Below, one piece after another: positions 39,072 to 56,259 of a stretch of DNA of 64,000 nucleotides (the stretch's first letter is position 1; each line of letters opens with the position of its first letter). Position numbers and translations under genes: made by a program. Origin of the DNA: an uncultured virus (IMG/VR IMGVR_UViG_3300027977_001066). Taxonomy: Duplodnaviria > Heunggongvirae > Uroviricota > Caudoviricetes. The notes beneath the pieces are model-generated. The model saw only the letters and a program-made list of their open reading frames with translations, ran no database searches and was not told where the DNA came from. The stretch lies in IMG/VR virus record IMGVR_UViG_3300027977_001066; one strand, given 5' to 3'.

Positions 39072-41785
39072 GTTACGTTGACGCTATTCACAGCAGGGAT
39101 GAGGATCGTATCTACGTAGTAGAACGGGATAATAACGGCAAGCGTCAATACAAAGAATATCCCACTAACTATGTATTGTATTATCCTGACCCTAAGGGTA
39201 AACATCGTAGTATCTATGGCGATCCAGTCAGTCGTTTCAGTACTCGAAAACGACAAGAGTTTGAAAAAGAAAGACGCATTCATTCAGGTAAGAAATTATT
39301 TGAAAGTGATGTTAACGTAGTCTTTCGCTGTCTAAGTGAAAACTATCTTAAAGTTGATGCTCCTAAACTTCATACTTGCTTCTTTGACATTGAGGTAGAC
39401 TTTGATCCTGAGAAGGGTTTCAGTCCTACTAGCGATCCATTCAATCCTGTAACTGCTATCAGTTGTTACTTAGATTGGCTAGACCAATGCATTACACTAG
39501 TGATTGCTCCTAAACATATGTCTAGTGAAACAGCCCAAGAAATCACTAATGAATTTGAAAACACAATGCTATTCAAATCAGAGAAGGAAATGTTTGATGT
39601 TTTCTTTCAACTCATTGAAGATGCAGATGTATTGACTGGCTGGAACTCAGAGGGCTATGATATTCCCTATATGGTCAATCGTGTTACTAGAGTGATGAGT
39701 AAAGATGACACACGCAAGTTTTGCTTGATGGGTCAACTTCCTAAAGCTAGAGAATACGAACGATTCGGTAAGAGTGAAACAACTTATGACTTAGTAGGTC
39801 GTATTCACTTGGACTATTTACAGTTGTACAAAAAGTATAACTATGAATCTCGTCACAGTTATAAACTTGACTCTATCGGTGAGATGGAAGTCGGTGAAAA
39901 CAAAACACAATATGAAGGTACGCTTGACCAACTGTATAACAAAGACTTTAAAAAGTTCATTGAATACAATAGACAAGATACAATGTTGTTAGTGAAGATT
40001 CACAACAAACTTAAGTTTTTAGAATTAGCTAATCAACTTGCACACGAAAACACAGTACTGCTTCCAACAGTAATGGGTTCAGTAGCAATGATTGAGATGG
40101 CTATTTTTAATGAGGCTCACGAACGTGGGTTAGTTGTTCCAGATAAAAAACGAAAGGTTGAAAATGAAGAAGAAATCCAGCAAGCGGCAGGTGCCTTTGT
40201 TGCTACGCCGAAAAGAGGAATGCACGAATATGTCGGGGCAGTTGACATTAACTCGCTCTATCCCTCGGTTATTCGTGCCCTCAACATGGGTGGAGAGACC
40301 ATCGTTGCTCAAATCAGACAGACAATCACAGACCAGTATATGAAAGACAAGGGCCTTCGACTAGCAAGTGAGAAGAAACGCTATAAAGAAGGTGACGATG
40401 ATGTGACTGGTGCCATACTATGGGAGAATCTGTTCGGTGCATTAGAGTATACTGCGATTATGAACCAAGAACGTGGTACTATGCTTACAGTTGACTTTGA
40501 AGATGGTCGTACTGAAGAAATGTCAGCGGCAGAAGTCTGGAAGATGATATTTGATAGTCATAAGCCCTGGATGCTAAGTGCTAATGGTACAATCTTTACT
40601 TATGAGAAAGAAGGTGTTGTTCCTGGTCTACTAACACGTTGGTACTCAGACCGTAAAGAAATGCAGAAGAATCTAAAAGAAGCAACTACGACTGAAGATA
40701 GAGAATACTGGGATAAGCGACAACTTGTTCGTAAGATTTTATTGAATTCAGCGTATGGTGCATTGTTGAATGAACATTGTAGGTTCTATGATAAACGTAT
40801 AGGTCAAAGTGTTACACTAAGCGGTCGTCAAATTGTTCGTCATATGATGAGTACCATCAACGAATCAGTTGAGGGCACGTATTCACACGAAGGCAATGCA
40901 ATTGTATATGGTGATACTGATAGTTGTTACTTCACTGCTTATCCCACACTGAAGCCACAGATTGATAAAGGTGAGTTAGTATGGGACAAAGAACTCTGTA
41001 TCGGATTGTATGATAGTATTGCAGACCAAGCTAATGAAAGTTTCCCATCATTTATGGAGAAGGCATTTCACGCACCTCGTAAGAATGGTGAAATCATTAA
41101 AGCTGGTCGTGAACTAATTGGTGATCGTGCTATCTTTATTGTTAAGAAACGTTATGCTATTAACATCTTTGACAAAGAAGGTAAGCGTAAAGATAAAGAT
41201 GGTAAGCTTGGTGATATCAAAGCTATGGGTCTTGACTTGAAACGTGCTGATACTCCTAAATACATACAAGAATTTTTAATGAATGTATTGCAAATGATTC
41301 TGCAAGAAGGTAAAGGTCGTGATGAGGTCATTGAAGCTATCAAAGACTTTAAACGAGTATTAACTGCACAAGACAGTTGGACTAAAGGTTCTCCTAAAGG
41401 TGTTAACAAACTTACAATGTACGGTGATTTAGAAGCTAAGAGCAGTACTGGTCGTGCAAATATGCCCGGTCACGTAAGAGCGGCATTAAACTACAACTAC
41501 TTGCGTAGAGTAAACAGCGACAACTATAGTCAGAAGATTATTGATGGTATGAAGGTAGTGGTATGCAAACTTAAACCTAATCCATTAGGCTTTACCAGTA
41601 TCGCATATCCTGTTGACGAATTACGATTACCAAAATGGTTCACAGAGTTACCATTCGATGACCAAGCAATGGAACAAACATTGGTTGATGAAAAGATTGA
41701 TAACTTGTTGGGAGTACTTGGTTGGGATATTCGTAGTAGTACAGATACGAATAGTACATTTGATGATTTATTCAGCTTCGGGTAA
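39068..41785 (+). CDS. Family B DNA polymerase (T4 gp43-like)
   Basis: Exo motifs FDIEV, GWNSEGYDIPY, YNRQD; pol motifs DINSLYPS, KILLNSAYG, YGDTDS, KKRYA. Confidence 0.97.
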   Translation: MSYVDAIHSRDEDRIYVVERDNNGKRQYKEYPTNYVLYYPDPKGKHRSIYGDPVSRFSTRKRQEFEKERRIHSGKKLFESDVNVVFRCLSENYLKVDAPKLHTCFFDIEVDFDPEKGFSPTSDPFNPVTAISCYLDWLDQCITLVIAPKHMSSETAQEITNEFENTMLFKSEKEMFDVFFQLIEDADVLTGWNSEGYDIPYMVNRVTRVMSKDDTRKFCLMGQLPKAREYERFGKSETTYDLVGRIHLDYLQLYKKYNYESRHSYKLDSIGEMEVGENKTQYEGTLDQLYNKDFKKFIEYNRQDTMLLVKIHNKLKFLELANQLAHENTVLLPTVMGSVAMIEMAIFNEAHERGLVVPDKKRKVENEEEIQQAAGAFVATPKRGMHEYVGAVDINSLYPSVIRALNMGGETIVAQIRQTITDQYMKDKGLRLASEKKRYKEGDDDVTGAILWENLFGALEYTAIMNQERGTMLTVDFEDGRTEEMSAAEVWKMIFDSHKPWMLSANGTIFTYEKEGVVPGLLTRWYSDRKEMQKNLKEATTTEDREYWDKRQLVRKILLNSAYGALLNEHCRFYDKRIGQSVTLSGRQIVRHMMSTINESVEGTYSHEGNAIVYGDTDSCYFTAYPTLKPQIDKGELVWDKELCIGLYDSIADQANESFPSFMEKAFHAPRKNGEIIKAGRELIGDRAIFIVKKRYAINIFDKEGKRKDKDGKLGDIKAMGLDLKRADTPKYIQEFLMNVLQMILQEGKGRDEVIEAIKDFKRVLTAQDSWTKGSPKGVNKLTMYGDLEAKSSTGRANMPGHVRAALNYNYLRRVNSDNYSQKIIDGMKVVVCKLKPNPLGFTSIAYPVDELRLPKWFTELPFDDQAMEQTLVDEKIDNLLGVLGWDIRSSTDTNSTFDDLFSFG

Positions 41786-41862
41786 ATTGCTATTGCATTA
41801 CGCAATAAAATATAATATAATATACAACATAAACTGCCTAAATAGGTATACAAAGGAAAAAC

Positions 41863-42594
41863 ATGAAAGATTATTTACAAGATTTAATTACACACACAAA
41901 CGGTCTAGGTGATGTAGACTTAATTAAAGTTTCAGGTACTGATACCGAGACAACTATCAACGCAATTTCAGAAAAGAAAACTGTTATTGTATCAGGAGTA
42001 TTGAATAGCCCAATAGCTGATTTCATCGGTGTGTTCGGTATGCCTAACTTAACTAAACTCAAAACTATTCTAGGTTTTGATGACTACGATGAACACGCTA
42101 AAATTTCTGTATTACGCACTAATCGTGATGGTGTTGATGTACCTAGTACTATTCACTTTGAAACAAAAGACGGTTCATTTGTTAATGACTATCGCTTGAT
42201 GACTAAATCAATCGTTGAAGAAAAAGTTAAAAGTGTTACATTCAAGGGTACTACTTGGAATGTTGAGTTTGAGCCTACTATCGCAGGCATTCAACGACTA
42301 AAGAAACAAGCAAGTGCTAATAGTGAAGAAGAACATTTTACATTCACAACAGTTAATGGTGACTTGAAGGTTAACTTTGGTGATCCATCAACTCACAGTG
42401 GTAACTTTGTATTTCAACCGGGTGTTACTGGTTCATTAAACAAAGCTTGGAATTGGCCAGTTAAAGTGTTCTTAGCTATTATGGACTTGCCGGGTGACAA
42501 GAAAGTTCGTATTGCTGATGCAGGTGCTACTGAGATTACAGTAGATTCAGGTCTGGCTACATATACATATCTATTGCCAGCTAACGCAAAATAA
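41863..42594 (+). CDS. Probable sliding clamp (gp45/PCNA-like)
   Basis: 243 aa directly after PolB; FGMPNLTKL...YTYLLPA pattern; a clamp loader is present in the window. Confidence 0.65.
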   Translation: MKDYLQDLITHTNGLGDVDLIKVSGTDTETTINAISEKKTVIVSGVLNSPIADFIGVFGMPNLTKLKTILGFDDYDEHAKISVLRTNRDGVDVPSTIHFETKDGSFVNDYRLMTKSIVEEKVKSVTFKGTTWNVEFEPTIAGIQRLKKQASANSEEEHFTFTTVNGDLKVNFGDPSTHSGNFVFQPGVTGSLNKAWNWPVKVFLAIMDLPGDKKVRIADAGATEITVDSGLATYTYLLPANAK

Positions 42595-44144
42595 TGGAAC
42601 AAGACAATCTATCACAAAAACAAAACCCTGATTGGGCATTGTTCTTACCTGCAGTCAGTAGTTTTTATATTGCTGGCTTGGGTAAACAACGTAAAGGTGA
42701 ACAGTACTTTGATCCTGCACGTATCCCTGCACAATTTAATGGTGATGTAGAAAAACTAAACTTCTTAAATAGTAGTGAAGGTCTCTATTATTACAAATGG
42801 GGCTTGTACAGTGCTGGTCACGCAAACTTAGATACTACTAAAAACGATCCTAGTGAAAGTATCATTAGAGAACGTGAATCTGGCACGTTTATGTTAGGTG
42901 ACAGTGGTGGATTTCAGATTCTTAAAGGTCAATGGCCTGCTGATTGGAAAGATCCTAACTGCCCTAAAGCTATGATAAAGCGTAAAGCGGTGTTGAACTG
43001 GATGGATACATATATGGACTATGGTATGGTCCTTGATATTCCTTCACAATCATTAACTACCTTTCATATGAAAGATAAGAATGGTGTCAGTCTTCACGGT
43101 ATCAGTACTATTGAAGAAGCTATTAGTGCTACCCATATCAATAACGAATACTTCATTAAGAATCGTAATGGTAAATGTAAGTTTTTAAATGTATTACAAG
43201 GTCGTACACATAAACAAAGTGACGATTGGTATGCTGAAATGAAAAAGTATTGTGATCCAAATCAGTATCCAGACAATCATTTTAATGGTTGGGCATTCGG
43301 TGGTCAGAATAAGATTGATGTTCATTTGATGCTAACACGAATGGTTGATATTATCTATGATGGTTTACTGGTAGAAGGTAAACACGATTTGATTCACTGT
43401 TTGGGTACAAGTATCTTAGAGTATGCTGTATTGTTTACTGATATTCAGAAAGCTATTCGCAAGTATCATAACCCTAAACTACAAATTACATTTGACTGTG
43501 CAAGCCCATTCTTTAGTGCGGCTAAAGGTTTAGCATATTTTAATACAAGTATTGAGCATAATAAAAAATGGTCATACAGTATGGAAAAGACTGCTGAAAA
43601 GAAAAGTTATGCTAATGATAATCGTAAATATCGTGATGCTGTACTAGCTGAAGGCATCCATAAAGTCTTTACAGACAGTCCAGTAACTGATAAACTGTTA
43701 CTTAAGGACTTGTGCTATAGAGGTCAAGGATTCATTGGTCAACATGGTAAAGAAACTAAAACAAGCTGGGATACGTTGAGTTATACATTGATTCAAAGTC
43801 ATAATGTATGGATGCATATGAACGCTGTGCAGGAAGCTAATCGTCAATATGAAAGGGGCGTTGTACCTAAGATGTTGATGAATGAACAATTTGAACGTGT
43901 TTTGTTTAAAGATGTGATTGATGAAATTTTCAGTAAGAAAACAAAACAGGAATCTATTGATTTAATTAATCAAAACAGTAGATTGTGGATGCAATTTCAA
44001 TCAGGTAGTCAAGGTATTAGTGGTAAGAAAACTATGAATGCACTAACAATGTTTGATGAATTGTTTGATGTACAAGACGAACCAGAGTTCGAAGAAGTCA
44101 TTGAAGATAGCGATGATGAAATTTCTAAAATATTAGGAGAATAA
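42594..44144 (+). CDS. dpdA: TGT-fold transglycosylase, DpdA-like (7-deazaguanine insertion into DNA)
   Basis: LGDSGGFQ, VLDIP, LNVLQG, GWAFGG, IHCLG, TFDCASP; neighbours folE/queD/queE and the replisome genes. Confidence 0.75.
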   Translation: MEQDNLSQKQNPDWALFLPAVSSFYIAGLGKQRKGEQYFDPARIPAQFNGDVEKLNFLNSSEGLYYYKWGLYSAGHANLDTTKNDPSESIIRERESGTFMLGDSGGFQILKGQWPADWKDPNCPKAMIKRKAVLNWMDTYMDYGMVLDIPSQSLTTFHMKDKNGVSLHGISTIEEAISATHINNEYFIKNRNGKCKFLNVLQGRTHKQSDDWYAEMKKYCDPNQYPDNHFNGWAFGGQNKIDVHLMLTRMVDIIYDGLLVEGKHDLIHCLGTSILEYAVLFTDIQKAIRKYHNPKLQITFDCASPFFSAAKGLAYFNTSIEHNKKWSYSMEKTAEKKSYANDNRKYRDAVLAEGIHKVFTDSPVTDKLLLKDLCYRGQGFIGQHGKETKTSWDTLSYTLIQSHNVWMHMNAVQEANRQYERGVVPKMLMNEQFERVLFKDVIDEIFSKKTKQESIDLINQNSRLWMQFQSGSQGISGKKTMNALTMFDELFDVQDEPEFEEVIEDSDDEISKILGE

Positions 44145-44145
44145 T

Positions 44146-44358
44146 ATGCCATATAAAAATCGTATTAAAACACTAGAAGAATCAATTAGATTATTAGACA
44201 ATCAAATTTTTCAATTAGAAAAAAACGGATCAACAGATATTAAAAAAATATCCGAGTTAAAAGAAACTAAGGATAAATATTTTACTGATTTGCGATTAAT
44301 GAATAGAGTGCAATGGGATCATGACCATAACACGGTAGACTTAGGAGATGATAGATGA
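44146..44358 (+). CDS. Hypothetical coiled-coil protein
   Basis: AGGAG RBS. Confidence 0.7.
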   Translation: MPYKNRIKTLEESIRLLDNQIFQLEKNGSTDIKKISELKETKDKYFTDLRLMNRVQWDHDHNTVDLGDDR

Positions 44359-44810
44359 ACGAACAACATATACAAGCACTAGCTGAAAAACGTCAGCGAA
44401 TTAAAGACAAAGCAGTACGTACAATTTTTGTGCGTTTTCAAAAAGAAGGTATTCATAAATACCCAGCGGCAGCAACAGACCCTAACTTGGCAACAGGTGA
44501 TGAGTATGATGTTAGCTTTCTAGCAACTCCGCATAGACACATCTTTCACTTTGAAGTGTCTATTGAAGTATTTCACAACGACCGTGATATTGAGTTTATT
44601 CAATTCAAAAGATGGTTAGAGAATCAATATTCTCAAGGCATTCTTCAATTGGATTACAAAAGTTGTGAAATGATTAGTGATGACCTCTATGATGTTATCG
44701 CAACTCGATATCCAGATCGTAATATCGTTATTCAAGTATCGGAAGATAATGAAAACGGTGCTACGATTGTTTACAATACTTATAAACCCTCTCTTTCAAT
44801 CGCTATTTAA
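44355..44810 (+). CDS. QueD-paralogous T-fold protein (DpdL-like)
   Basis: LATPHRHIF (LxxxHRHxF), RDIEF, SCEMI, VSEDNENGA. Confidence 0.65.
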   Translation: MNEQHIQALAEKRQRIKDKAVRTIFVRFQKEGIHKYPAAATDPNLATGDEYDVSFLATPHRHIFHFEVSIEVFHNDRDIEFIQFKRWLENQYSQGILQLDYKSCEMISDDLYDVIATRYPDRNIVIQVSEDNENGATIVYNTYKPSLSIAI

Positions 44811-44823
44811 AGGAATTATTAAA

Positions 44824-45027
44824 ATGGCAAAACAACAACAATCTAATCCACGTGTTCAACAACTGTTTGAGGACCTAGAAGGCTATCTAGCTTTCTGTCA
44901 GGACTATGGATACAAATACGATGAGGCAACACTATATGATATGCGTGTTTTTGCATATCGTCAATATAGCAAAGCCTGTACAGGTAAATGGGCTAAGGAT
45001 CAGTGGGCAGAGGATATGCGCCCATGA
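44824..45027 (+). CDS. Hypothetical protein
   Basis: AAGGA RBS; start reassigned to 44824 (MAKQQQSNPRV). Confidence 0.7.
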   Translation: MAKQQQSNPRVQQLFEDLEGYLAFCQDYGYKYDEATLYDMRVFAYRQYSKACTGKWAKDQWAEDMRP

Positions 45028-45785
45028 AAGTAGTATTAATTACAGGTGGATTTGATCCACTACACAGCGGACATATCGCATACATTAATGCGGCTAAAAA
45101 ATTAGGAGATATGTTAGTCATCGGACTTAATAGCGATGCTTGGTTATCTCGCAAAAAAGGTAGACCATTCTTGCCATTAGGTGAGCGAGTAGCAGTAACT
45201 TCAGCATTAGACACACCTAATGCATTATTGTTATTTGATGATAGTGATGACACTGCCAAAGATGCTATTAGACAAATCAGAGAAAACTATCCGGAAGCAA
45301 CTATTGTGTTTGCTAATGGTGGTGATAGAACCAGTGACAACATTCCAGAAATGGATATCGATGATAATAACATTGAATTCGTTTTTGGTGTAGGCGGAGA
45401 AGACAAGGTAAATTCTAGTAGTTGGATTCTCGACACTTGGAAAGCACCCAAAACAGAACGTGAGTGGGGATACTATCGTGTATTGCATGAGGTAGATGGT
45501 ACTAAAGTAAAAGAACTTACAGTAGAACCAAAACAATCTCTTAGTATGCAAAAACATGCCAAACGTAGTGAACACTGGATCGTTACTGAAGGTAAGTGTA
45601 AGATACGTAGATATGCCGAAACGGGTGAATTGACCGAGACAATTCTAACTAAACATGATACAATTACTATTAAACCTGATGAGTGGCATCAGTTAACTAA
45701 CACATTTAGTAAACCTTGTAAAATCGTTGAGATTCAATATGGTAAGAAATGTGTAGAAGAAGATATCAAACGACAAAATGCATAA
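45024..45785 (+). CDS. Cytidylyltransferase-like domain fused to a mannose-6-P-isomerase-type cupin
   Basis: TGGFDPLHSGH, GLNSD, FANGGDR, NSSS; REWGYY...LSMQKH.KRSEHW...WHQL...IVEIQYG. Confidence 0.85.
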   Translation: MKVVLITGGFDPLHSGHIAYINAAKKLGDMLVIGLNSDAWLSRKKGRPFLPLGERVAVTSALDTPNALLLFDDSDDTAKDAIRQIRENYPEATIVFANGGDRTSDNIPEMDIDDNNIEFVFGVGGEDKVNSSSWILDTWKAPKTEREWGYYRVLHEVDGTKVKELTVEPKQSLSMQKHAKRSEHWIVTEGKCKIRRYAETGELTETILTKHDTITIKPDEWHQLTNTFSKPCKIVEIQYGKKCVEEDIKRQNA

Positions 45786-46977
45786 ACTATTTTACATGGG
45801 CCTAGAGCCTTACAAAGCACGATACACATTACAGTTGCAAGACTGGAATGAAAGTGTATTTAAACGTAGGGGCATTAACTATGTTATTGTCCCGGGCGAA
45901 ACATTAAGTAATGACCAAGCTATCGTTACGGGACAAGTGTTGGATGCACATGGTCGCACATACTTTGGTATGAGTCAACTTATGAATCTTGTTAAGATGA
46001 TGAAGCAAGGCGATGTAGGCGCAGGTGATATAGTTTATTTTGAAGATATGTTTCAGCCCGGAATTGAGTCATTGCCTTACATTATGAAACAGATTCCGAT
46101 CACAAGTCGTCCTAAGATTTTTGTTCGCTGTCTAGCACAAAGTATTGATCCTGATGATTTCGTACACGTATGGGGTATGAGTGAATTCATGGGTCACTAT
46201 GAGAAGATGGTTGATTCATTCGCTGATGGTGTACTTGCTAGTAATGAAGAAATGGTAATGCATATGAAGATTGCGGGTTGGCGTGCTCCGATCTACAATA
46301 TCTCAGGCTTAGCATTTGGTAAAGAAGAAGTACGAGGTCGTATCAATAATAACATCAAGCCTTTTGATGAACGAAAGATGCGTATTGCATTCTCAGCACG
46401 TTGGGATCAAGAAAAACAACCTGATTTCTATATGGATGTGATTGAAGAATTCTTTAACCGTTATGGTATGAAGGATCGTCATGGTGTATATCGTAGTGTA
46501 GAGTTCTGTGTGTTTAGTGGTAGTAAATTGAAAAGCAATAACGATAGTTATATGAAGCGTACACAAGATATGCAAAATCGTGGTTTGTTAAAAGTACACG
46601 AAGACCTAGATAAAAACGCATACTATGAGTTATTAAATGATACTAGAGTATTGTTTAACTGTGCTTTACAAGACTGGGTAAGTAATACAGTTAGTGAAGC
46701 AGATGCATTGGGTTGTAATGTATTGTATCCGGCATATCGCAGTTTCCCAGAAACATTTGCGAATGATTATACAAGACTATATACACCCTGGAGTGTTGAA
46801 GATGCAACAATTAAATTGTATAATATGTTACATCAGCCGCATGTAAATCAAGGTAAAATCAGTGATTGGACTGATGGTACTATTGATAGAATCTGTGATA
46901 TTCTAGAGGGTAATGGACAACAATGGTTGCGTATGGACACAGACTATCGCAAACATACCAGAGAGAGTAAATACTAA
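45778..46977 (+). CDS. GT-B fold glycosyltransferase
   Basis: FSARWDQEKQP, NCALQDWVSNTVSEADALGC.VLYP..RSFPE (E-x7-E-like region). Confidence 0.7.
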   Translation: MHKLFYMGLEPYKARYTLQLQDWNESVFKRRGINYVIVPGETLSNDQAIVTGQVLDAHGRTYFGMSQLMNLVKMMKQGDVGAGDIVYFEDMFQPGIESLPYIMKQIPITSRPKIFVRCLAQSIDPDDFVHVWGMSEFMGHYEKMVDSFADGVLASNEEMVMHMKIAGWRAPIYNISGLAFGKEEVRGRINNNIKPFDERKMRIAFSARWDQEKQPDFYMDVIEEFFNRYGMKDRHGVYRSVEFCVFSGSKLKSNNDSYMKRTQDMQNRGLLKVHEDLDKNAYYELLNDTRVLFNCALQDWVSNTVSEADALGCNVLYPAYRSFPETFANDYTRLYTPWSVEDATIKLYNMLHQPHVNQGKISDWTDGTIDRICDILEGNGQQWLRMDTDYRKHTRESKY

Positions 46978-46989
46978 AAGGAGACTATT

Positions 46990-47679
46990 ATGTTTGAAAC
47001 AACTTATGAAAATGAAATGTCGTATCGTTCGGCAAGCGAGGTAAACTCAGCAATGGGTCGAGTTTACGGACATATGAGTATTGCTGTTATTGTATCAATG
47101 ATTGTTAGTTACTTTGTAGGCACAAGCCCAGAGTTGCTGGCATTCTTTTTTACAGGCGTAATGAAATGGATTGTAATCTTTTCACCATTAGTAGCAATTT
47201 TTGGTATTGCTATGATCCTAGGAAATAATCCTAGTAAAGGTACTGCACAGTTATGCTTGCATGGCTTTGCGGCATTGATGGGATTAAGCTTTGCTACAAT
47301 CTTTGCTGTATTCACTATGGGTAGTATTGTGTCAGCATTTATGGGTGCGGCAATACTGTTTGGTGTTATGAGTGGATATGGTTACTTTACTAAACAAAGT
47401 TTAGATAGTGTTGGAAAGTTTATGTTTGTAGGATTGATTGCTATTATCATTGCTAGTATTGTTAATATCTTTATTGGAAGTACCGTGATGCAAATGGTAA
47501 TATCAGCATTAGCTATTATCATCTTTCTTGGCTTAACTGCCTATGACACACAAAAGATCCGTGAAGAACTAAGTGTACAAGCCAGTGATGTTGCAGAAGT
47601 ACGTGGGGCATTGACGCTGTATATGGACTTTATTAACTTGTTTATTAATCTATTACAAATTTTTGGTGATAGGAAATAA
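46990..47679 (+). CDS. Bax inhibitor-1/YccA-family membrane protein
   Basis: About 7 hydrophobic helices; LTAYDTQKI, GALTLYMDFINLF. Confidence 0.9.
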   Translation: MFETTYENEMSYRSASEVNSAMGRVYGHMSIAVIVSMIVSYFVGTSPELLAFFFTGVMKWIVIFSPLVAIFGIAMILGNNPSKGTAQLCLHGFAALMGLSFATIFAVFTMGSIVSAFMGAAILFGVMSGYGYFTKQSLDSVGKFMFVGLIAIIIASIVNIFIGSTVMQMVISALAIIIFLGLTAYDTQKIREELSVQASDVAEVRGALTLYMDFINLFINLLQIFGDRK

Positions 47680-47681
47680 TC

Positions 47682-48147: not shown

Positions 48148-48834
48148 ATGAGTTATAATAAAACAAAAACTGATCCAGAGTTGGGTCAAAAAGTTCATCT
48201 ACATCTATTAAATATGGGAGTAGAAACACCAATTGACGACACAATTGATTTAGGTGATCGTAAGGATCGCATTGAAAAGATTGAAGGTCATTTCAAGGCT
48301 ATTATGGAAACAATGGGTTTAGACCTAGATGATGATAGTCTCATCGAAACACCCAAACGTGTTGCTAAGATGTATGTGAATGAAATCTTTTGGGGACTTG
48401 ATTATGAAGCATTCCCTAAATGTACAACAGTTGACAACAAGATGCAATATAACGAAATGGTTGTAGAGCGTAATGTTAATGTTCAATCTAACTGCGAACA
48501 TCATTTTGTAGTCATCGATGGATTGGCTACTGTAGCTTATGTCCCTAAACAAAAAGTATTAGGGCTTAGTAAGATAAACCGTATCGTAGAATATTTTAGC
48601 AAAAGACCTCAAATCCAAGAGAGGTTAACAGAGCAAATTTTTCACACCTTACAGTTCATCCTTGATACAGAAGATGTTGCAGTTATGATTGATGCACAGC
48701 ATTATTGTGTTAAGTCACGCGGTGTAGAAGATACAGGTAGTAGTACTGTTACTTGTCGTTTAGGTGGAGGTTTCAAATCAGACCCCGCGGCACGTAGTGA
48801 GTTCTTACAAATTGCTAATAAAGGTTGCAAATAA
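48148..48834 (+). CDS. folE: GTP cyclohydrolase I
   Basis: ETPKRVAKMY, SNCEHHF, GLSKINR, RPQIQERLT, HYCVKSRG. Confidence 0.96.
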   Translation: MSYNKTKTDPELGQKVHLHLLNMGVETPIDDTIDLGDRKDRIEKIEGHFKAIMETMGLDLDDDSLIETPKRVAKMYVNEIFWGLDYEAFPKCTTVDNKMQYNEMVVERNVNVQSNCEHHFVVIDGLATVAYVPKQKVLGLSKINRIVEYFSKRPQIQERLTEQIFHTLQFILDTEDVAVMIDAQHYCVKSRGVEDTGSSTVTCRLGGGFKSDPAARSEFLQIANKGCK

Positions 48835-49031: not shown

Positions 49032-49267
49032 TGGGCTTTCGTAAACAAATGGATTACAACAGTGTACATCATCAAATCTATATGAGTGGTGTAGAACTTC
49101 ATAGTAACTATAATGATGGTTTCAATCAATTTGAAATCAAAAAAGATTTACATAAATTAAAATGGTTATTAGATGAAATTATGTCTGATAGTCCTACGTT
49201 TGCAGGTGAAGAAGAATTTTTAAAAGAACATGACCAAACTAAAATGTGGAGAGCACTTTCAAAATGA
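49031..49267 (+). CDS. Hypothetical protein
   Basis: Coupled ORF. Confidence 0.7.
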   Translation: MGFRKQMDYNSVHHQIYMSGVELHSNYNDGFNQFEIKKDLHKLKWLLDEIMSDSPTFAGEEEFLKEHDQTKMWRALSK

Positions 49268-49737
49268 TTTTCAACCACATTAAAAAACTTAAACAAGAAG
49301 GTAAAAAGATTGGTATTACTTTTAGCACATTTGACTTACTACACGCAGGCCACGTTGCTATGTTAAGTGAGGCAAAGAATCATTGTGATTACTTGATTTG
49401 TGGATTACAAACTGATCCAACTATCGATAGACCTGATACTAAGAATAAACCCATTCAAAGTATTGTAGAACGACAAATTCAGTTAGCGGCTTGTCGCTAT
49501 GTTGATGAAGTAGTGGTTTATCAAACTGAACAGGACTTAATTGACTTGTTATTAATACTACCAGTAGATGTTCGCATACTAGGTGTAGAATATGCAGAAA
49601 AAGAATTTACCGGAAGATATGAAGGTGGAGAACGTGGCATTGAACTTGTGTTTAATGGACGTGACCATAGTTTCAGTAGTTCAAGTTTAAGAAAAAGGGT
49701 AGCTGATGCCCAGATTATTAACACTCTTAATAAATAA
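49264..49737 (+). CDS. TagD-like cytidylyltransferase
   Basis: TFSTFDLLHAGH, CRYVDEV, RDHSFSSSSLRKR; start at the ATGA overlap at 49264. Confidence 0.85.
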   Translation: MIFNHIKKLKQEGKKIGITFSTFDLLHAGHVAMLSEAKNHCDYLICGLQTDPTIDRPDTKNKPIQSIVERQIQLAACRYVDEVVVYQTEQDLIDLLLILPVDVRILGVEYAEKEFTGRYEGGERGIELVFNGRDHSFSSSSLRKRVADAQIINTLNK

Positions 49738-49741
49738 CTAT

Positions 49742-49806
49742 AGCGGTCTTTGGACATCATCCCGCTTTACAAATTCTGCTGCCTATGCTATAATACAACA
49801 TAGGAG
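49742..49806 (+). promoter_or_regulatory. Structured queD leader with embedded TTTACA-N17-TATAAT promoter and RBS-occluding hairpin
   Basis: AGCGG/CCGCT stem (49742-49766); CCTATG (49782-87) pairs with CATAGG (49799-804) over the AGGAG RBS. Confidence 0.55.
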
Positions 49807-49812
49807 AAATTC

Positions 49813-50295
49813 ATGGCAAACAAAAAATTCTTTTCAACAAAAACATACAGACAAATAGGTCCTGTTGCATATCGTCAATGGCGTGCTGACAGTCATTGTA
49901 ATTTAATTCATGGCTATGCTATGAGTTTTCACTTTGAGTTTGAAGCTGATACATTAGACGCACGTAACTGGGTAACTGACTTCGGTGGATTACGACCCCT
50001 CAAAGATAAACTAGAGGAATGGTTTGACCATACTCTATTAGTCGCACAAGATGATCCTATGCGTGATGAACTATTGCGTTTAGGTGAATTGAAACTAGCA
50101 AAGATTACAGAAGTAGAACGTACTGGTTGTGAAGGTATATCTGACTTCTTATACGAATACATTAACACAATTTTCTTACCCAACTGTGGTAGTGAAGAAG
50201 CTAAACGTGTTTGGTGTTGCAGAGTAGAGGTACGTGAGACTGATAGCAATATGGCAGGACGTAGTGGTCATAGGGAAGACGGGGAGTTTGCATAA
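49813..50295 (+). CDS. queD: 6-carboxy-5,6,7,8-tetrahydropterin synthase
   Basis: SHCNLIHGY, WVTDFG.L, FDHTLL, VEVRET. Confidence 0.85.
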   Translation: MANKKFFSTKTYRQIGPVAYRQWRADSHCNLIHGYAMSFHFEFEADTLDARNWVTDFGGLRPLKDKLEEWFDHTLLVAQDDPMRDELLRLGELKLAKITEVERTGCEGISDFLYEYINTIFLPNCGSEEAKRVWCCRVEVRETDSNMAGRSGHREDGEFA

Positions 50296-50726
50296 TGTTT
50301 AGTGTACTCAAATTCATTTGGTTGATTAGTCGTTCCTCTTGGAATATTATAAACCCTAATATGAATCCTCTGCGTCATGCGCCCGTATATGTCAAATACT
50401 TTCTCAGTATCCTACTAGGCTGTTTTTGGAGTCTGGCGTTTGGTCTTTACGTTGGTGAACTACTGACTATCGGCTACAACATGATTGGACACATTGCTAT
50501 CATTAGCATGGTGTTTGCTACTTGGGCAGTGTTTCGTTCAGTAGAAAATACTTATGGTCCACGCGGTGGCACAGTAGACTGGCTACGTATGCCAGATTAC
50601 AGTAGCCGTTGTGACGAACTTACTGAACAACAACGACTTGAAAAAGTACAAGAATGGAACAATCGTAATGTTTGGAACGAACCTAAACATTCTGAAAAAG
50701 ATAAAGAAACTTATTACGGAGCATGA
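50295..50726 (+). CDS. Hypothetical membrane protein
   Basis: Two hydrophobic helices; NPLRHAP motif. Confidence 0.7.
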   Translation: MFSVLKFIWLISRSSWNIINPNMNPLRHAPVYVKYFLSILLGCFWSLAFGLYVGELLTIGYNMIGHIAIISMVFATWAVFRSVENTYGPRGGTVDWLRMPDYSSRCDELTEQQRLEKVQEWNNRNVWNEPKHSEKDKETYYGA

Positions 50727-50839
50727 GTATGACTGTTAATGAAATTATTGCCGTAATAATAATGGTAACTGTAGTAGGAATAGTACTATGGGATATACAC
50801 AAAAATGGATTAAGTAAAGAAGATGAACCAAGAGAATAA
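50723..50839 (+). CDS. Small single-TM protein (38 aa; not in the ORF track)
   Basis: MSMTVNEIIAVIIMVTVVGIVLWDIHK...; ATGA coupling. Confidence 0.55.
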   Translation: MSMTVNEIIAVIIMVTVVGIVLWDIHKNGLSKEDEPRE

Positions 50840-50957
50840 AGAACCTGAAACAGAACAATGGTTAGAAGATATAACCAAACACGCACCGGTTGTGATTCCT
50901 ATTGTGGGAGCAGTATTAAGTTTTATGTTGGCTTTTATTGCCATCACAATGGCTTGA
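50823..50957 (+). CDS. Small C-terminally anchored membrane protein (44 aa; not in the ORF track)
   Basis: MNQENKEPETEQWLEDITKHAPVVIPIVGAVLSFMLAFIAITMA fills the gap before 50959. Confidence 0.6.
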   Translation: MNQENKEPETEQWLEDITKHAPVVIPIVGAVLSFMLAFIAITMA

Positions 50958-50958
50958 T

Positions 50959-51177
50959 ATGGCAATAATCAAATGGATTTGCTTTGGCATTATGTTCGCA
51001 GGAGCCATAGTAGTTAGTTTTAATCTAGATCCTATAATAGGCATTGAGCTACTATTTGTAGGCAACGCCGCTTGGTTGGTAACTGCCGTACGTACTAGAG
51101 ATTGGCCTAGTGCCGCAAACTTTGGCATGCTGGCATCAGTATGGTTTCTAGGTATGTTACAATATTATAAAGGATAA
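50959..51177 (+). CDS. Small multi-TM membrane protein
   Basis: Three hydrophobic segments; start reassigned to 50959. Confidence 0.65.
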   Translation: MAIIKWICFGIMFAGAIVVSFNLDPIIGIELLFVGNAAWLVTAVRTRDWPSAANFGMLASVWFLGMLQYYKG

Positions 51178-51179
51178 AA

Positions 51180-51818
51180 ATGTTAGAAACAATTTGCGAT
51201 ACATTAGTTGAAGCATATAGACGCAACTGGATTACCAGTCGTGATGGCAATGTAAGTATTCGTCATCACGACCGTGACCACTTCTACATCACACCCAGTG
51301 GTGTTCGTAAGCAAACGATGCAACCCGACCAGTTTAAGAAGATTGGGATAATCGATCAGATTTGGCAAGAAGATCCGTCGTTGATAGAACTTCCTTATTC
51401 AGATATAAGCCAAGGATTGAGACCTAGTGGAGAATTGCCTTTGCATTTTGGATTGCAAAAGAGACTAGGACAACACAGTGATGATGTAAGAGTTGTAGTT
51501 CATTTACACCCTACTTATTGTATTGCCGCTATGCACGCCGGTATTGATTTAAGCACTATCAGTAGTGCGTTTCCAGAATTGAATCGTTACACTAAGGTAG
51601 CACCCAATGTAAGGGATGTGGCTCCCATTAGCCAAGAGCTTGCGGATCAATGCCATAATCAATTACAATTAGACAATAAAGGCAACATTGCCTATGACAT
51701 TGTAGGTATTAAAGGACACGGAGTAGTAGCAATTGACACAAGCCCCTGGCGTGCGTTTGAACACATTGAACGATTAGAACATATTTGTCAAATCGTATTA
51801 GCATCAGGAAAATATTAA
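51180..51818 (+). CDS. Class II aldolase/adducin-family protein
   Basis: RDGNVS, ITPSG, PSGELPLH, VVHLHPTY, KGHGVVA. Confidence 0.9.
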   Translation: MLETICDTLVEAYRRNWITSRDGNVSIRHHDRDHFYITPSGVRKQTMQPDQFKKIGIIDQIWQEDPSLIELPYSDISQGLRPSGELPLHFGLQKRLGQHSDDVRVVVHLHPTYCIAAMHAGIDLSTISSAFPELNRYTKVAPNVRDVAPISQELADQCHNQLQLDNKGNIAYDIVGIKGHGVVAIDTSPWRAFEHIERLEHICQIVLASGKY

Positions 51819-51819
51819 A

Positions 51820-52455
51820 ATGAGTTACATTGTAGGATCATTGCCACCAATTAAGTGTTGGATAAAACGTGAATTTCTTTATAACTTTGAAAAGGGGCAC
51901 GGAGAATTAGAACCTGCCATCTGGGTTAGTCTTAAAGCATTGCGTGGACAAGTATTTCGTATTGAAAGTTTATTACCCAATTACGGAGCATTGTATGATA
52001 AACTACCTATACACGCTTATGTATGGAAAAAAGACCACACAGCAACGTTACCTATTGATATGTTACAGCTTTGGGACTGTATGGGGTATCGTTTTACTAT
52101 CATTGAAAAAATAGGATTACGCAATTTAGGTGTTAAGTTTCTAGGTAAAGACAAGGAATGGCATTACGGAACTTATTTGTTTACTGTAGACTTTTGTGCT
52201 GACGGCATGGATGTGGACACAGGCTTTACTGAAGTTGCAGAAGAACACAAATCGTTTAATTTTATTAAGTTAGAAAATGGACAGTTTGCTTGTCAGCCTA
52301 ACAACCGTTGCTTGTGGTACGATCAAAGTTTGATTCCCGGTGAAACTAAATTTCCTGATTTTCAGGCGGCTCAAAATCTATGGACAGTAGATGGTACACG
52401 TAAATGGAGTGCAGGAGATGATTGGTTTTATTCTATTGAGGAAAAACATGAATAG
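51820..52455 (+). CDS. Conserved-looking hypothetical protein
   Basis: 211 aa; LQLWDC...EEHKS...GQFACQPNNR. Confidence 0.75.
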   Translation: MSYIVGSLPPIKCWIKREFLYNFEKGHGELEPAIWVSLKALRGQVFRIESLLPNYGALYDKLPIHAYVWKKDHTATLPIDMLQLWDCMGYRFTIIEKIGLRNLGVKFLGKDKEWHYGTYLFTVDFCADGMDVDTGFTEVAEEHKSFNFIKLENGQFACQPNNRCLWYDQSLIPGETKFPDFQAAQNLWTVDGTRKWSAGDDWFYSIEEKHE

Positions 52456-52639
52456 TTTAGAAAAAATTTGGGCAAGAGCAACCGGCCATTTAATGGGTAA
52501 TACAGATGATGACAGGCCTGATGTTCCTATTCTTACATTGGGTGAAGCGAGGATTGCATTGTTCCTAAAGACTTTCTGGGTGGTGCTACATGTGATAACA
52601 TGTTGTGTCATTATAGCAAATACTATACGTCATTGGTAA
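52448..52639 (+). CDS. Small membrane protein
   Basis: GAGG RBS; start reassigned to 52448; C-terminal TM segment ending ANTIRHW. Confidence 0.65.
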   Translation: MNSLEKIWARATGHLMGNTDDDRPDVPILTLGEARIALFLKTFWVVLHVITCCVIIANTIRHW

Positions 52640-52642
52640 TAA

Positions 52643-52861
52643 ATGAACAAAAAAATAGAAGAACTAGCAAAAGAAGCAGGGTTTGACTGGGCATTAAAAC
52701 GAGCATCACTTGCAGGTCAAACTGCTGATAGTGAATCTATTGAAAAATTTGCTGAATTAATTATACGTGATTGTGCTAAACAAGTTAATCACATTTACAA
52801 ACAAGGTGGCGGCACTTGGGGTGAAGTCATCCTTACCAACTACAACATAAAAATCAAATGA
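52643..52861 (+). CDS. Hypothetical protein
   Basis: IEELAKEAG...EKFAELIIRDCA phage-type small protein. Confidence 0.7.
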   Translation: MNKKIEELAKEAGFDWALKRASLAGQTADSESIEKFAELIIRDCAKQVNHIYKQGGGTWGEVILTNYNIKIK

Positions 52862-53706
52862 GTCATTTAAAAGTATCAGAATTATTTTATAGCATTCAAG
52901 GTGAGGGTAGATACATGGGTGTTCCCAGTGTGTTCTTACGAACATATGGATGTAATTTTACATGCGGTGGCTTCGGTATGCCTAAGGGAGAAATGAGTAG
53001 TGAGAGAGATGTTATTGCAATTAAAGCAGAAGATTATACAGATTATAAATCCTTACCGCTTGTCAGTACAGGATGTGATAGTTACGCAAGCTGGGACCCT
53101 CGCTTTAAACATCTTAGTCCTGTTATCGCTACCGATAGTATTGTTGACAGCATTATGGATATACTTCCTCACAAGCGTTGGATGGATGAACACCTTGTTA
53201 TCACAGGTGGTGAACCTCTTCTTGGATGGCAAAGAGCGTATCCAGACTTACTTTCAAATGAAAAAATGAGAAGTCTTAAAGAGATTACATTCGAAACTAA
53301 CGGTACACAAGAACTTAGTCAAGACCTCACAATATATTTACAGAAGTGGAAGATTAACAGAGAAAAGAATGCATTAACATTTAGTGTTAGTCCTAAACTA
53401 AGTATCAGTGGCGAGAAGTGGCAAGAAGCAATTTGTCCTAGTATTATTCGTCAATATGAAAGTGTAGGTTTTGTTTATCTTAAGTTTGTAGTAGCAACAG
53501 AAGATGATGCACTTGAAGCAGATAAAGCAGTAAAAGAATTTCGCAATGGTGGATTTAGAGGCCCTGTATACTTCATGCCATGCGGTGGCGTAGAGTCATT
53601 ATATAAACTAAATGCAAAGAATGTTGCTATTGAAGCAATGAATCGTGGTTATCGTTATAGTGATAGACTGCAAGTACCGTTATTTAAAAATGAGTGGGGA
53701 ACATGA
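52858..53706 (+). CDS. queE: 7-carboxy-7-deazaguanine synthase (radical SAM)
   Basis: ELFYSIQGEG, GCNFTC...GCDS, ITGGEPLL, FETNGT, SVSPKL, RLQV. Confidence 0.9.
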   Translation: MSHLKVSELFYSIQGEGRYMGVPSVFLRTYGCNFTCGGFGMPKGEMSSERDVIAIKAEDYTDYKSLPLVSTGCDSYASWDPRFKHLSPVIATDSIVDSIMDILPHKRWMDEHLVITGGEPLLGWQRAYPDLLSNEKMRSLKEITFETNGTQELSQDLTIYLQKWKINREKNALTFSVSPKLSISGEKWQEAICPSIIRQYESVGFVYLKFVVATEDDALEADKAVKEFRNGGFRGPVYFMPCGGVESLYKLNAKNVAIEAMNRGYRYSDRLQVPLFKNEWGT

Positions 53707-53945
53707 AAAAATATCAGCACATTGTATTATTGCCATGGGATTATTGGAAATACTATATGGGACCAGACGGTTCTATAAGAGATAAAAATAATCCATTAGA
53801 TTGGTGTGTTGATACTTTTGGTCCTGGTAGAACAAAGTCTAGGTGGACGTATGAATATAAAGATACACAAGATGATGGATTTGAAACTACGTTCAAATTC
53901 ACAGATGAGAAAGATTATATTCATTTTATGTTACGATGGAGATAG
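53703..53945 (+). CDS. Hypothetical protein
   Basis: WC.DTFG...W...F..EKD...F.LRW small phage family; ATGA coupling. Confidence 0.65.
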   Translation: MKKYQHIVLLPWDYWKYYMGPDGSIRDKNNPLDWCVDTFGPGRTKSRWTYEYKDTQDDGFETTFKFTDEKDYIHFMLRWR

Positions 53946-54175
53946 TTATGCCACTAGATAGCATGGGTCATACTTCTGAGTTTAATCGTAATAGTTATCT
54001 AGGAGCAGAACTTAAATTTGTTTGGTTACCTGAAAGATGCAATCTAACAGGTAAACGTATCTGGTTAGTAAAAGCTTACAGACTAACTAGTATCTGGCAC
54101 GGCCCCGATGCTGCCGTATTAGAACACAGTTGGCACGATAAGAATACCCATATTATGTGGTTATTAAAAAGGTAA
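53936..54175 (+). CDS. Hypothetical protein
   Basis: F.WLP.RC.LTGKRIWL motif. Confidence 0.65.
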   Translation: MEIVMPLDSMGHTSEFNRNSYLGAELKFVWLPERCNLTGKRIWLVKAYRLTSIWHGPDAAVLEHSWHDKNTHIMWLLKR

Positions 54176-54179
54176 ATAT

Positions 54180-54353
54180 ATGTATGAATTAAGATATCTT
54201 GTCCGAAACGGTTGGGACGGACCAGAAAAAGTGTTACAATATAGAACACAAATTGAAGTAACAGATTATAGTACAACCACTGATAAAGGTAGTTTTACTA
54301 AAAAGCGTGAATGGACTGAATGGCAAGATGTGCCCACAGTGAAAGATAAATGA
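54180..54353 (+). CDS. Small hypothetical protein MYELRYLVRN...EWQDVPTVKDK (57 aa; not in the ORF track)
   Basis: Fills the gap; ATGA-coupled to the next gene; VLQYR...WQDVP motif. Confidence 0.75.
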   Translation: MYELRYLVRNGWDGPEKVLQYRTQIEVTDYSTTTDKGSFTKKREWTEWQDVPTVKDK

Positions 54354-55741
54354 GAACATACGATAAACGAATTGGCTTCTTAGTAAGCTCACAAACATTG
54401 ATACCACATGGTGGTATAGGACAATTTACAAAAAGCTTTTGTGAATTGATGGATAGTCATAATATTAAAGTTGATATCATTACTGATAAACAACCGCAGA
54501 ATACAGATTTCATCAAGTCACTTAATGCAAAAATTATCGCACCGACTAATGTATTAAAATACACAGACCATAGTGCTATCTTTATGTATGGTGATACATT
54601 CTGCTATGAGCGTATGGCCAACTTCCGTAATAGTATTGTTGAAGCACTAGAAGAAAATATGTATGATGCACTCGTATGTAATACATATGAAACTGTGCAA
54701 TTAGCTTCAACTATGGGATTAGAAGATATTATTCAAATTATTGCGTACACTCACTTAGAAAGTCAAATCTTTACTAATACTTCAAATCCATTTCTATTAA
54801 GTACGAATGAAATGATGCGTAAACAATTAGAGATGAATGCATTGTTTATAGGGACACAAAGTAAATACAATCAATTGCAATTTCAAAATGCATATGAATT
54901 ACCTATCCCATTGCCAGAAAAAGATTTATTAAAAGAACACCATAAGCCACGTGAAGGTGTACTGTTTATTGGTAGATGGGAAGAGGGTAAGAATCCCGAA
55001 CTCTATTTAGATTTAATTGAGCAAACACGATTGCCAGCAAGAGTAATGACAAGTGCGACTGGTGCTAAAAAGTTTGAAGCACGATTAAAAGAAATTGGTG
55101 TACCATATGAAATTCGTATAGGTATTATTGGTCAAGAGAAGGTTGATTTCATAACTAGTTGTCGTGTTGCATTTAATCCTAGTTTAGTTGAGAGTTACGG
55201 GATTGCATTTTTAGAACAAATGACACAAATGCCAACTGTTGCGTTAGATAATATACGATGGACTAACAATTTTAATAGTCAATATTTTTTCACTTGTACA
55301 AAACAAACAATGGTAACTGTAGTGGAAGCGTTGTATCATTCATATGACACTGCACAAAGTTGGTATGATGAAGGCTCATTAAAACATACTCAAACTATGG
55401 ATAGTTTAGTATTTCATAAATGGAATGATTGTTTTAATCAATTTGCTTGTAAACAATCAAGGAACAGTACTGCAGGTATTTGCAAGACTCTCACTTCTCC
55501 AAATTTAACTGTTAGATATGCAGATTTTATTGCAACCCTAAACAGAAGAATAATCTGCATTGATGATGCCCGTAGTGTGTTTACAAACAAATACAAATAT
55601 CGTGTAATTTATACTGATGACGATACATATTTGACTCTTGATCCTGCATTTGTACCCGCACCAATTGTAATATTGCAACCAACTATACAATCAAATCTTA
55701 CCGGTAACCCAATGGAAGATTTGTTTGAAATTGAGAAATAA
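54350..55741 (+). CDS. GT-B (GT4-like) glycosyltransferase
   Basis: PHGGIGQF, LFIGRWEEGKNP, FNPSLVESYGIAFLE. Confidence 0.8.
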   Translation: MRTYDKRIGFLVSSQTLIPHGGIGQFTKSFCELMDSHNIKVDIITDKQPQNTDFIKSLNAKIIAPTNVLKYTDHSAIFMYGDTFCYERMANFRNSIVEALEENMYDALVCNTYETVQLASTMGLEDIIQIIAYTHLESQIFTNTSNPFLLSTNEMMRKQLEMNALFIGTQSKYNQLQFQNAYELPIPLPEKDLLKEHHKPREGVLFIGRWEEGKNPELYLDLIEQTRLPARVMTSATGAKKFEARLKEIGVPYEIRIGIIGQEKVDFITSCRVAFNPSLVESYGIAFLEQMTQMPTVALDNIRWTNNFNSQYFFTCTKQTMVTVVEALYHSYDTAQSWYDEGSLKHTQTMDSLVFHKWNDCFNQFACKQSRNSTAGICKTLTSPNLTVRYADFIATLNRRIICIDDARSVFTNKYKYRVIYTDDDTYLTLDPAFVPAPIVILQPTIQSNLTGNPMEDLFEIEK

Positions 55742-56259
55742 TGATGAAACAAAAAGTTATAGATTTTATTAATAGTAACAAGTTTAAAAATAAGTTTGGA
55801 ATACCCTTCGTCATTTTTGACGGAGAGCTAAAAAAATACAAAACCGATAAATTACCAAATACCTGTGGTATATATATTACTCATAGTGACAAGTTAGGAA
55901 TAATATATATAGGAATGACTGAATCAAGTGCTAATAGTAGATTTGAAAGGCACATGGGTAGGGCAGACAAAGGTAAAGATTATGACAAAAATAAACCTCA
56001 TAAAGTTTGGGATTATTTTCATAGCTGGTGTAAAACAGAAAGGTATAGTTTAGAACAAGATAGCGATTATATTTTTGTGTCTTTCCAAAACAAAATTACG
56101 AAAAAACAATTAGAATTCTTGGAAAGCGGATTAATCTTTGAATTTCAAACTTTACTGAATGATGATTGTTTTGAATGGTTTGGTTTTCAACAGTTAGAAA
56201 ATCTTAAAGGAACTTTGTCCACGTCAAGAGATACAACAGATTTATTTGAAGGATTATGA
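55741..56259 (+). CDS. GIY-YIG endonuclease (homing-endonuclease-like)
   Basis: CGIYITH...IIYIGMT...SRFERH...LEFLE...LN. Confidence 0.75.
   Translation: MMKQKVIDFINSNKFKNKFGIPFVIFDGELKKYKTDKLPNTCGIYITHSDKLGIIYIGMTESSANSRFERHMGRADKGKDYDKNKPHKVWDYFHSWCKTERYSLEQDSDYIFVSFQNKITKKQLEFLESGLIFEFQTLLNDDCFEWFGFQQLENLKGTLSTSRDTTDLFEGL

Follow-up and report, generated by a model that had tools for sequence, protein, structure and literature searches.

The sliding clamp of phage T4, gp45, has a pocket that binds LDFLF peptides of the DNA polymerase gp43, at its C-terminus, and of the ligase, in a loop (PMC6212786; PMC12746103). The gp43 protein ends ASLDFLFG, and gp55 ends SLDFLYEAND. An interaction of the T4 alpha-glucosyltransferase with gp45 was reportedly described by Sommer in 2004. 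Its binding to gp45 has been confirmed by pull-down (PMC13216743). Phages phiST and ACP17 have deazaguanine systems consisting of DpdA, DpdL, FolE, QueD and QueE without QueC (PMC10516641). Deazaguanine insertion is said to take place after replication, and how the enzyme locates phage DNA or matches the fork is left unexplained; the main text of PMC10516641 contains neither "clamp" nor any word starting with "glycosyl". The locus described here belongs to an uncultured virus (IMG/VR record IMGVR_UViG_3300027977_001066). The window, meaning the whole 64-kb stretch analysed, is the start of a 74,466-base viral contig estimated to be 21% complete. In it a DNA polymerase, a DpdA-like transglycosylase and a glycosyltransferase carry C-terminal peptides with the core Leu-Phe (LF) that are predicted to dock on a sliding clamp.

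The polymerase and clamp are similar to those of T4 and RB69 in that the B-family polymerase carries a short hydrophobic peptide on a flexible tail and the clamp gene lies close by. They differ in that the clamp is closest to PCNA by fold, the consensus is FxxLF or xxLF instead of SLDFLF, and the proposed clients are base-modifying enzymes. The tailed glycosyltransferase (54350..55741; all window features given here are on the + strand) is similar to T4 alpha-glucosyltransferase in being a GT-B-type phage enzyme linked to the clamp, here by prediction, and proposed to modify DNA during replication. However, the two are unrelated by sequence (hhalign probability 0.3%), and the T4 enzyme acts on hydroxymethylcytosine whereas the 54350 gene sits in a deazaguanine cluster. 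T4 alpha-glucosyltransferase also has no polymerase-like terminal peptide, only an internal VSLFDD; the surrounding ETVSLFDDIEE (gene at L351:14625-15827) is a candidate gp45-binding site. T4 already offers an example of a DNA glycosyltransferase that binds the clamp, and what appears to be new is a conserved LF tail on an unrelated glycosyltransferase. The DpdA, DpdL, FolE, QueD and QueE genes, with no QueC, are those of the phiST and ACP17 systems (PMC10516641). In contrast to those systems, the transglycosylase is longer and divergent and matches DpdA2 of Vibrio phage nt-1 by fold only, and two glycosyltransferases are added. A literature search, with subscription journals largely outside its coverage, brought up no publication on clamp tails of DpdA, on clamp-binding motifs in DNA modification or on clamp-interacting homing endonucleases.

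Conservation of the LF peptides and the clamp

The polymerase tail very probably binds the clamp. The family B polymerase (39068..41785, 905 amino acids; Pfam DNA_pol_B, expect (E) value 1e-42; PHROG 262, E 3e-201) ends TNSTFDDLFSFG, and its conserved terminal peptide FDDLFSFG (41759..41782) is a predicted clamp-docking motif. An FxxLF-like end is found in 36 of 37 distinct polymerase tails, and the remaining one looks truncated. The earlier note on this DNA took the gene 3' of the polymerase (41863..42594, 243 amino acids) for the sliding clamp, and structure prediction bears this out. The AlphaFold2 monomer model (128 sequences; mean predicted local distance difference test score, pLDDT, 95.5) has the two-domain beta-alpha-beta-beta-beta clamp fold, and every Foldseek match listed is a PCNA-type clamp (best E 8.7e-11, probability 1.00, template modelling score about 0.69). 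The identity is invisible to sequence searches, with no Pfam call and nothing significant in the PDB, and similarity to T4 gp45 is marginal (hhalign probability 12.6%). The clamp gene is present in all 132 loci that hold the polymerase and DpdA-like genes. The protein has a conserved end, YxYxxPA, which we take to resemble the PCNA C-terminal strand lining the peptide pocket. A clamp loader resembling the RFC small subunit is encoded at 11357..12280 (NCBIfam PRK00440, E 5e-60, below the cut-off). Homologues of the clamp with 25-33% identity occur in 14 GenBank phage records, namely 11 of PA5oct/Paride-type Pseudomonas phages and those of Sinorhizobium phage Phosso, Vibrio phage 2.275.O and SCTP-2. 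Together with the contigs of close relatives, at about 350 kb, this indicates that the source is a PA5oct-related jumbo phage.

The DpdA-like tail is likely to bind the clamp as well. The 516-residue protein (42594..44144) is predicted to be a DpdA-like transglycosylase of a longer, divergent form. It has no Pfam, PHROG or NCBIfam match, nothing significant in a PDB sequence search and no sequence match to nt-1 DpdA2 (hhalign probability 0.9%). The assignment comes from an invariant DSGGFQ (D103-S-G-G), where DSGG is the catalytic motif of tRNA-guanine transglycosylases (TGTs), and from a weak model (pLDDT 58). The PDB matches of this model are TGTs at E ~3e-3, among other TIM barrels; its matches among phage TGT/DpdA proteins, the nt-1 protein being one of them, have E 2e-6 to 4e-6. 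Near its end the protein has ALTMFDELFDV, with FDELF at residues 487-491 (44052..44066), and then an acidic tail of 25 residues. All of the best 120 homologues (out of 6511) show the form F[DNE]x[LF][FWV]. By locus the peptide occurs in 154 of 160, and in four of the six exceptions Y replaces the first F. A predicted helix (481-490) lies inside a segment (470-516) with pLDDT below 50. In some relatives the peptide is at the extreme C-terminus (TKFNELFEFV; NNDLFGW, VEGLF).

The 54350 glycosyltransferase, of GT4/GT-B type, probably binds the clamp too, with somewhat less assurance. It has a Glycos_transf_1 domain (weak in Pfam, above the cut-off in a homologue; Atlas GT4 clusters at 0.97-0.99), nothing significant in a PDB sequence search, an extra conserved domain of about 65 residues behind the GT-B body (55451-55660), a linker and a terminal LF. 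The protein ends GNPMEDLFEIEK, and its terminal peptide is MEDLFEIEK (55712..55738). Each of the best 120 homologues (out of 1892) has [LF][FW] at most five residues from the end, and a terminal LF is present in 80 of 80 loci (the best 80 of 435). Among 113 distinct 3' ends, drawn from 175 glycosyltransferase open reading frames in the loci, LF is kept in all 113 (Leu in 111 and Phe in 2, followed by Phe in 113). One of the six search patterns was the window's own tail, which may favour window-like ends but cannot explain the rest. The Leu is encoded by TTA 44 times, TTG 22, CTG 21, CTA 17, CTT 6 and CTC 1, and both Phe codons are used. With all six Leu codons and both Phe codons in use, it is the protein that is constrained, not the nucleotide sequence. 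The stop codon often overlaps the start of the epimerase gene that follows; this codon spread rules out LF as an overlapping epimerase ribosome-binding site, while the EG codons might still be so explained.

The tail is found in both subfamilies of this glycosyltransferase. The second subfamily, which accounts for 63 of the best 80 loci, is 41-44% identical to the first and keeps the tail, and counted by clusters LF is present in 73 of 73 and 51 of 51 members. The second subfamily (L266-L345) is encoded at the same place in the gene order and has almost the same linker and tail, which suggests an exchange of the catalytic body and perhaps of sugar specificity. The extra domain, which is aligned in the homologues of phages BUCT-ZZ01 and BUDD, looks by eye like a helix-helix-hairpin (winged helix) domain; it has nothing significant in the PDB and no usable Atlas match.

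Within the window itself the peptides are suggestive. The earlier note quoted four of them, and all four are present as quoted, the last being RDTTDLFEGL at the C-terminus of a GIY-YIG endonuclease. The pattern [DE]LF occurs 11 times in 94 non-overlapping open reading frames of the 74.5-kb contig, and the 4 of 11 that fall within the last 30 residues are exactly the polymerase, DpdA-like, glycosyltransferase and GIY-YIG peptides. The binomial P is 0.027 for 4 of 11 in the last 30 residues and 0.008 for 3 of 11 in the last 12; without GIY-YIG, which is not independent, the values are 0.12 and 0.07. The pattern was picked post hoc, so this count is weak evidence by itself and the case rests on conservation. 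The note had staked its proposal on conservation of the motif among homologues, and the motif is conserved: in 36 of 37 polymerase tails, 120 of 120 DpdA-like proteins and, as LF, 113 of 113 glycosyltransferase ends. Three other genes of the cluster have no such tail: LF is found in 0 of 50 distinct ends of the 45778-type glycosyltransferase-like gene, 0 of 37 of DpdL and 0 of 40 of FolE.

Tails in other phages and protein families

The tails resemble that of the resident polymerase across unrelated phages. PA5oct has HFDSLFGW on the polymerase and SFNSLFD on the DpdA-like protein, and Vibrio phage 2.275.O has NTDLFDW and NNDLFGW; the likeness in Phosso is looser. In BUCT-ZZ01, a T4-like cyanophage, the polymerase (STLDDFFS), DpdA2 (ASLDSFFD) and an orthologue of the glycosyltransferase (GSLEDFFND) all have tails of the T4 type [ST]L[DE]xFF. 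This orthologue is 38% identical to the 54350 protein, and its gene sits between folE and a DpdA2-type gene. Among five further T4-like DpdA2 homologues, three match their own polymerase: those of BUDD (polymerase SSLESLFG, DpdA2 QSLEELFG), ACP17 (PSLDDLFE, TTLDELFE) and IME-SM1 (SSLEDLFGW, NSLDDLFG). The pf16 protein matches weakly and that of nt-1 does not. The tail thus appears to be common but not universal, and the switch of the glycosyltransferase tail comes from one phage. A scan for T4-like glycosyltransferase orthologues found none by single protein, and by alignment the best 80 of 435 loci look by their neighbours like the window clade; prokaryote genomes gave one short match. It was also considered whether the tail tracks a high level of modification, which is unsupported, since phiST DpdA3 is tail-less.

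Two other observations come from these phages. In nt-1 the unannotated ORF388 (L260:2498-3178), located between queD and folE, has the C-terminus ENSLANFF, which resembles a T4-type clamp peptide. In Erwinia phage SNUABM_32 (L167:7196-12074) a distant tail-less homologue of the glycosyltransferase lies beside a gene whose start resembles, by eye, the carboxy-SAM synthase CmoA, and this may be a different modification cluster.

Motifs of other clamp systems were also looked for. The PCNA-interacting protein (PIP) box has the consensus QxxhxxAA, where A is an aromatic residue, and the bacterial beta-clamp motif has the consensus QL[SD]LF. The PIP pattern is absent from the last 30 residues of every open reading frame, and QLxLF is absent from all open reading frames of the window. 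Against the T4-type consensus [ST]L[DE]x[LF]F, tails of the window clade read FxxLF or GxxLF, agreeing in the LF core and the terminal position, and the T4-type form is seen in the T4-like orthologues. These results bear on the possibility that the common target of the tails is not the phage clamp but another protein, for instance the beta clamp of the host, the loader or a single-stranded DNA-binding protein. The commonest glycosyltransferase tails are GLSLF and GESLF, of which GLSLF resembles QL[SD]LF, and LF pairs are generally known to serve several types of clamp. However, the Gln that stands three residues before LF in the bacterial motif is absent from the window's tails and is outside the seven commonest residues at that position in the glycosyltransferase tails. 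The phage also encodes its own clamp directly behind the polymerase, and the tail follows the type of the phage polymerase. Binding to such another partner is quite improbable.

A terminal LF is found on other protein families too. In a set of 147 families, each with at least three distinct members, [LF]F lies near the C-terminus in half or more of the sequences of 12 families. Annotation covered these 12, which are the polymerase, the two glycosyltransferase subfamilies, QueE, a DNA methyltransferase, GIY-YIG, an HNH nuclease, a Bax-inhibitor-like protein and four unassigned families. The DpdA-like family is missed by this count, as its peptide mostly stands at a greater distance from the C-terminus. 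Polymerase-like LF ends in relatives are present on the N6/N4 DNA methyltransferase (8 of 8), the HNH nuclease (3 of 5) and two of the unassigned families (6 of 9 and 3 of 3). Examples of LF-tailed genes are at L272:4033-5082, L089:14173-14562, L154:7786-8373 and L044:7490-7912. Several of these genes occupy a variable slot after the gene at 59405.

The QueE and membrane protein ends suggest another role for such peptides. QueE keeps PLFKNEWGT in 98% of 124 members, and the Bax-inhibitor-like membrane protein keeps QLFGDRK. It is conceivable that only the polymerase docks on the clamp, while the DpdA-like peptide is a helix held against the barrel of the same protein or against a partner subunit and the glycosyltransferase LF is an intramolecular or oligomer anchor like that of QueE. 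The invariant residues 465-482 that adjoin the DpdA-like peptide fit this, as does the lack of the first aromatic residue in the glycosyltransferase tail. On the other hand, the glycosyltransferase linker between the last domain and LF is anywhere from 10 to 29 residues long and tolerates an entire GIY-YIG domain ahead of LF, the tails turn T4-type in T4-like phages, and the DpdA-like tail is of low confidence in the model. Self-packing is therefore judged unlikely, and docking on the clamp is preferred for all three proteins.

Proposed tethered modification and the probable DNA substrate

Moderate confidence attaches to the proposal that the DpdA-like protein and the 54350 glycosyltransferase ride the clamp and modify new DNA. 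The LF tails of these two proteins and of the polymerase would plug into the hydrophobic pocket of the clamp, and a trimeric clamp could hold more than one client. The DpdA-like enzyme would exchange guanine on newly made DNA behind the fork, and the tailed glycosyltransferase would add a sugar on the new DNA. With regard to the two glycosyltransferases, the balance leans slightly towards a division in which the tail-less 45778 protein acts on the free base or is recruited by DpdA, and the tailed 54350 protein adds sugar on DNA.

Several findings weigh against this proposal. A terminal LF is not diagnostic, as the QueE and membrane protein ends show, and some QueD homologues end NEDLF. The earlier note's consensus (F)D(D/E)LF holds in the glycosyltransferase family for the LF core but not for the acidic and Phe positions: at position -1 D or E stands in 19 of 113 ends and S in 52, and at position -3, where the polymerase has its first aromatic residue, F stands in 4 and G in 67. 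The conserved glycosyltransferase core is LF with a loosely placed hydrophobic residue only, and the core common to the tails appears to be LF and not the longer motif. In close homologues the DpdA-like peptide is directly C-terminal to the invariant block 465-482, so it may form part of a folded element, and the model is weak. The nt-1 DpdA2 is tail-less and the pf16 form is weak; phiST DpdA3 also lacks the tail, as do DpdA candidates picked by eye in BCSR5, RHph_I1_18 and Ahp1. Distant glycosyltransferase homologues are tail-less in SNUABM_32 and in the Xanthomonas phage BUDD, whose polymerase has a tail, and no T4-like glycosyltransferase orthologue with a switched tail was found besides that of BUCT-ZZ01. 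The literature search mentioned above, with the same coverage, found no report of sugar-bearing deazaguanine in DNA. DpdA2 of VH7D modifies plasmid DNA in Escherichia coli without the phage clamp (PMC10516641), and the contact between T4 alpha-glucosyltransferase and gp45 is real but not the main determinant of the glucosylation level (PMC13216743). Because of these last two results, tethering probably raises efficiency and is not a requirement.

The LF tail raises the odds that the 54350 glycosyltransferase has a DNA substrate. The earlier note had counted the tail as independent support for such a substrate, and it does add weight, short of establishing one. An alternative is that the enzyme binds the clamp for localisation only, and that its acceptor, instead of deazaguanine in DNA, is a different base or a protein of the replisome or virion. 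The 54350-type gene was not found in PA5oct, Phosso, 2.275.O, ACP17 or BCSR5 (0 of 5), most of which have the DpdA/DpdL set, and the enzyme is unrelated to T4 alpha-glucosyltransferase. Clients of the T4 clamp also include gp33, which is associated with RNA polymerase (PMC6212786). However, the gene is present in 14 of 14 loci that were fetched by other genes and hold QueE with the epimerase or UvdE, and in the unrelated BUCT-ZZ01 it lies between folE and dpdA2. A count of 64 of 64 glycosyltransferase-containing loci was discarded as biased, since many of those loci had been fetched by the glycosyltransferase itself; the 14 are unbiased. A different acceptor seems improbable, and deazaguanine in DNA is the preferred one.

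A clamp tether, if true, would explain both how the enzyme is targeted to DNA and how it keeps pace with the fork. Expression of dpdA and dpdL of ACP17 in E. coli gave no 2'-deoxy-7-deazaguanine (PMC10516641). The want of a tether is one possible reason for this result, as the ACP17 DpdA tail (TTLDELFE) resembles the polymerase tail (PSLDDLFE) and the clamp is not among the genes reported as expressed. The tail would also sort the two glycosyltransferases into one that is likely to act on DNA (54350, tailed) and one that is likely to act on a precursor (45778, tail-less). BUCT-ZZ01, a phage in culture with Synechococcus elongatus PCC 7942 as its recorded host, carries the whole set. The DNA of PA5oct resists several restriction enzymes in a pattern that suggests modified G (PMC12191111); PA5oct is one of the phages in which no 54350-type gene was found. 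If the proposal is correct, phage DNA would be chemically disguised while it is being copied. Tentatively, one may picture a clamp-borne hypermodification line in which DpdA swaps guanine for a deazaguanine and the tailed glycosyltransferase then attaches a sugar, so that the DNA would contain a glycosylated purine. LF would be a portable clamp tag that is retuned in each lineage and has been acquired by methyltransferases and mobile endonucleases, and it could tell phage enzymes that act on DNA from those that act on free precursors.

The GIY-YIG insertion and the deazaguanine gene cluster

The GIY-YIG endonuclease does not stand as a fourth independent case, contrary to the earlier note. Its gene (55741..56259; Pfam GIY-YIG, E 6e-4) lies between the glycosyltransferase and the epimerase and is present in 5 of 99 glycosyltransferase loci. 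The last codons, LFEGL and a stop that overlaps the epimerase start (56242..56259), are the same as the glycosyltransferase-epimerase junction of relatives without the endonuclease, including the ATGA overlap. A GIY-YIG protein 63% identical to it at the same site ends MRGFK and has no LF tail. In P0122 and P0124 a related GIY-YIG domain (30%) is fused in frame inside the glycosyltransferase linker, with the ordinary LF tail after it. The window and L085 have a glycosyltransferase with a different, longer LF tail beside the inserted endonuclease. We are fairly confident that the tail of the endonuclease is the old 3' end of the glycosyltransferase gene, captured when the endonuclease was inserted into the linker. 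The glycosyltransferase would then have kept or regained an LF tail of its own, a longer replacement. One of the four cases is therefore lost, but the glycosyltransferase case is strengthened. It is doubtful, though conceivable, that the endonuclease makes use of the captured tail, a thought raised by the tails on other nucleases in relatives.

The surrounding genes suggest that the inserted base is a deazaguanine. FolE (GTP cyclohydrolase I) is encoded at 48148..48834 (Pfam E 1e-61), QueD at 49813..50295 (Pfam PTPS; PHROG 2389) and the radical SAM enzyme QueE, whose conserved end is a look-alike of the motif, at 52858..53706 (PHROG 2076). DpdL is a proposed decarboxylase of 7-carboxy-7-deazaguanine, with the signature LxxxHRHxF (PMC10516641). 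The product of 44355..44810, identified as DpdL and without a tail motif, carries this signature and is homologous to CGPG_00067 of phiST (35%, E 3e-6 by tblastn). No queC was found in this fragment of the genome, with its estimated completeness of 21%. The presence of dpdL, folE, queD and queE and the absence of queC from the fragment lead to a predicted base of 7-deazaguanine or a derivative. QueD occurs in several C-terminal types, one of them ending HREWNEDLF, which calls for caution in inference from motifs.

The first glycosyltransferase-like gene (45778..46977) accompanies DpdA and DpdL and has no tail motif. Its product is 63% identical to that of a BUCT-ZZ01 gene that scores Glycos_transf_1. 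A gene of this type is present in 69 of 69 loci that span DpdA to QueE, and it is found alongside DpdA and DpdL in unrelated phages too. Genes for sugar activation are interspersed among the deazaguanine genes (45003-45785, 49246-49737, 51180-51818 and 56256-57080); the set consists of two cytidylyltransferase-like proteins, one of them with a cupin, a class II aldolase and an NAD-dependent epimerase. The cluster also includes a Bax-inhibitor-1 family membrane protein (46990-47679).

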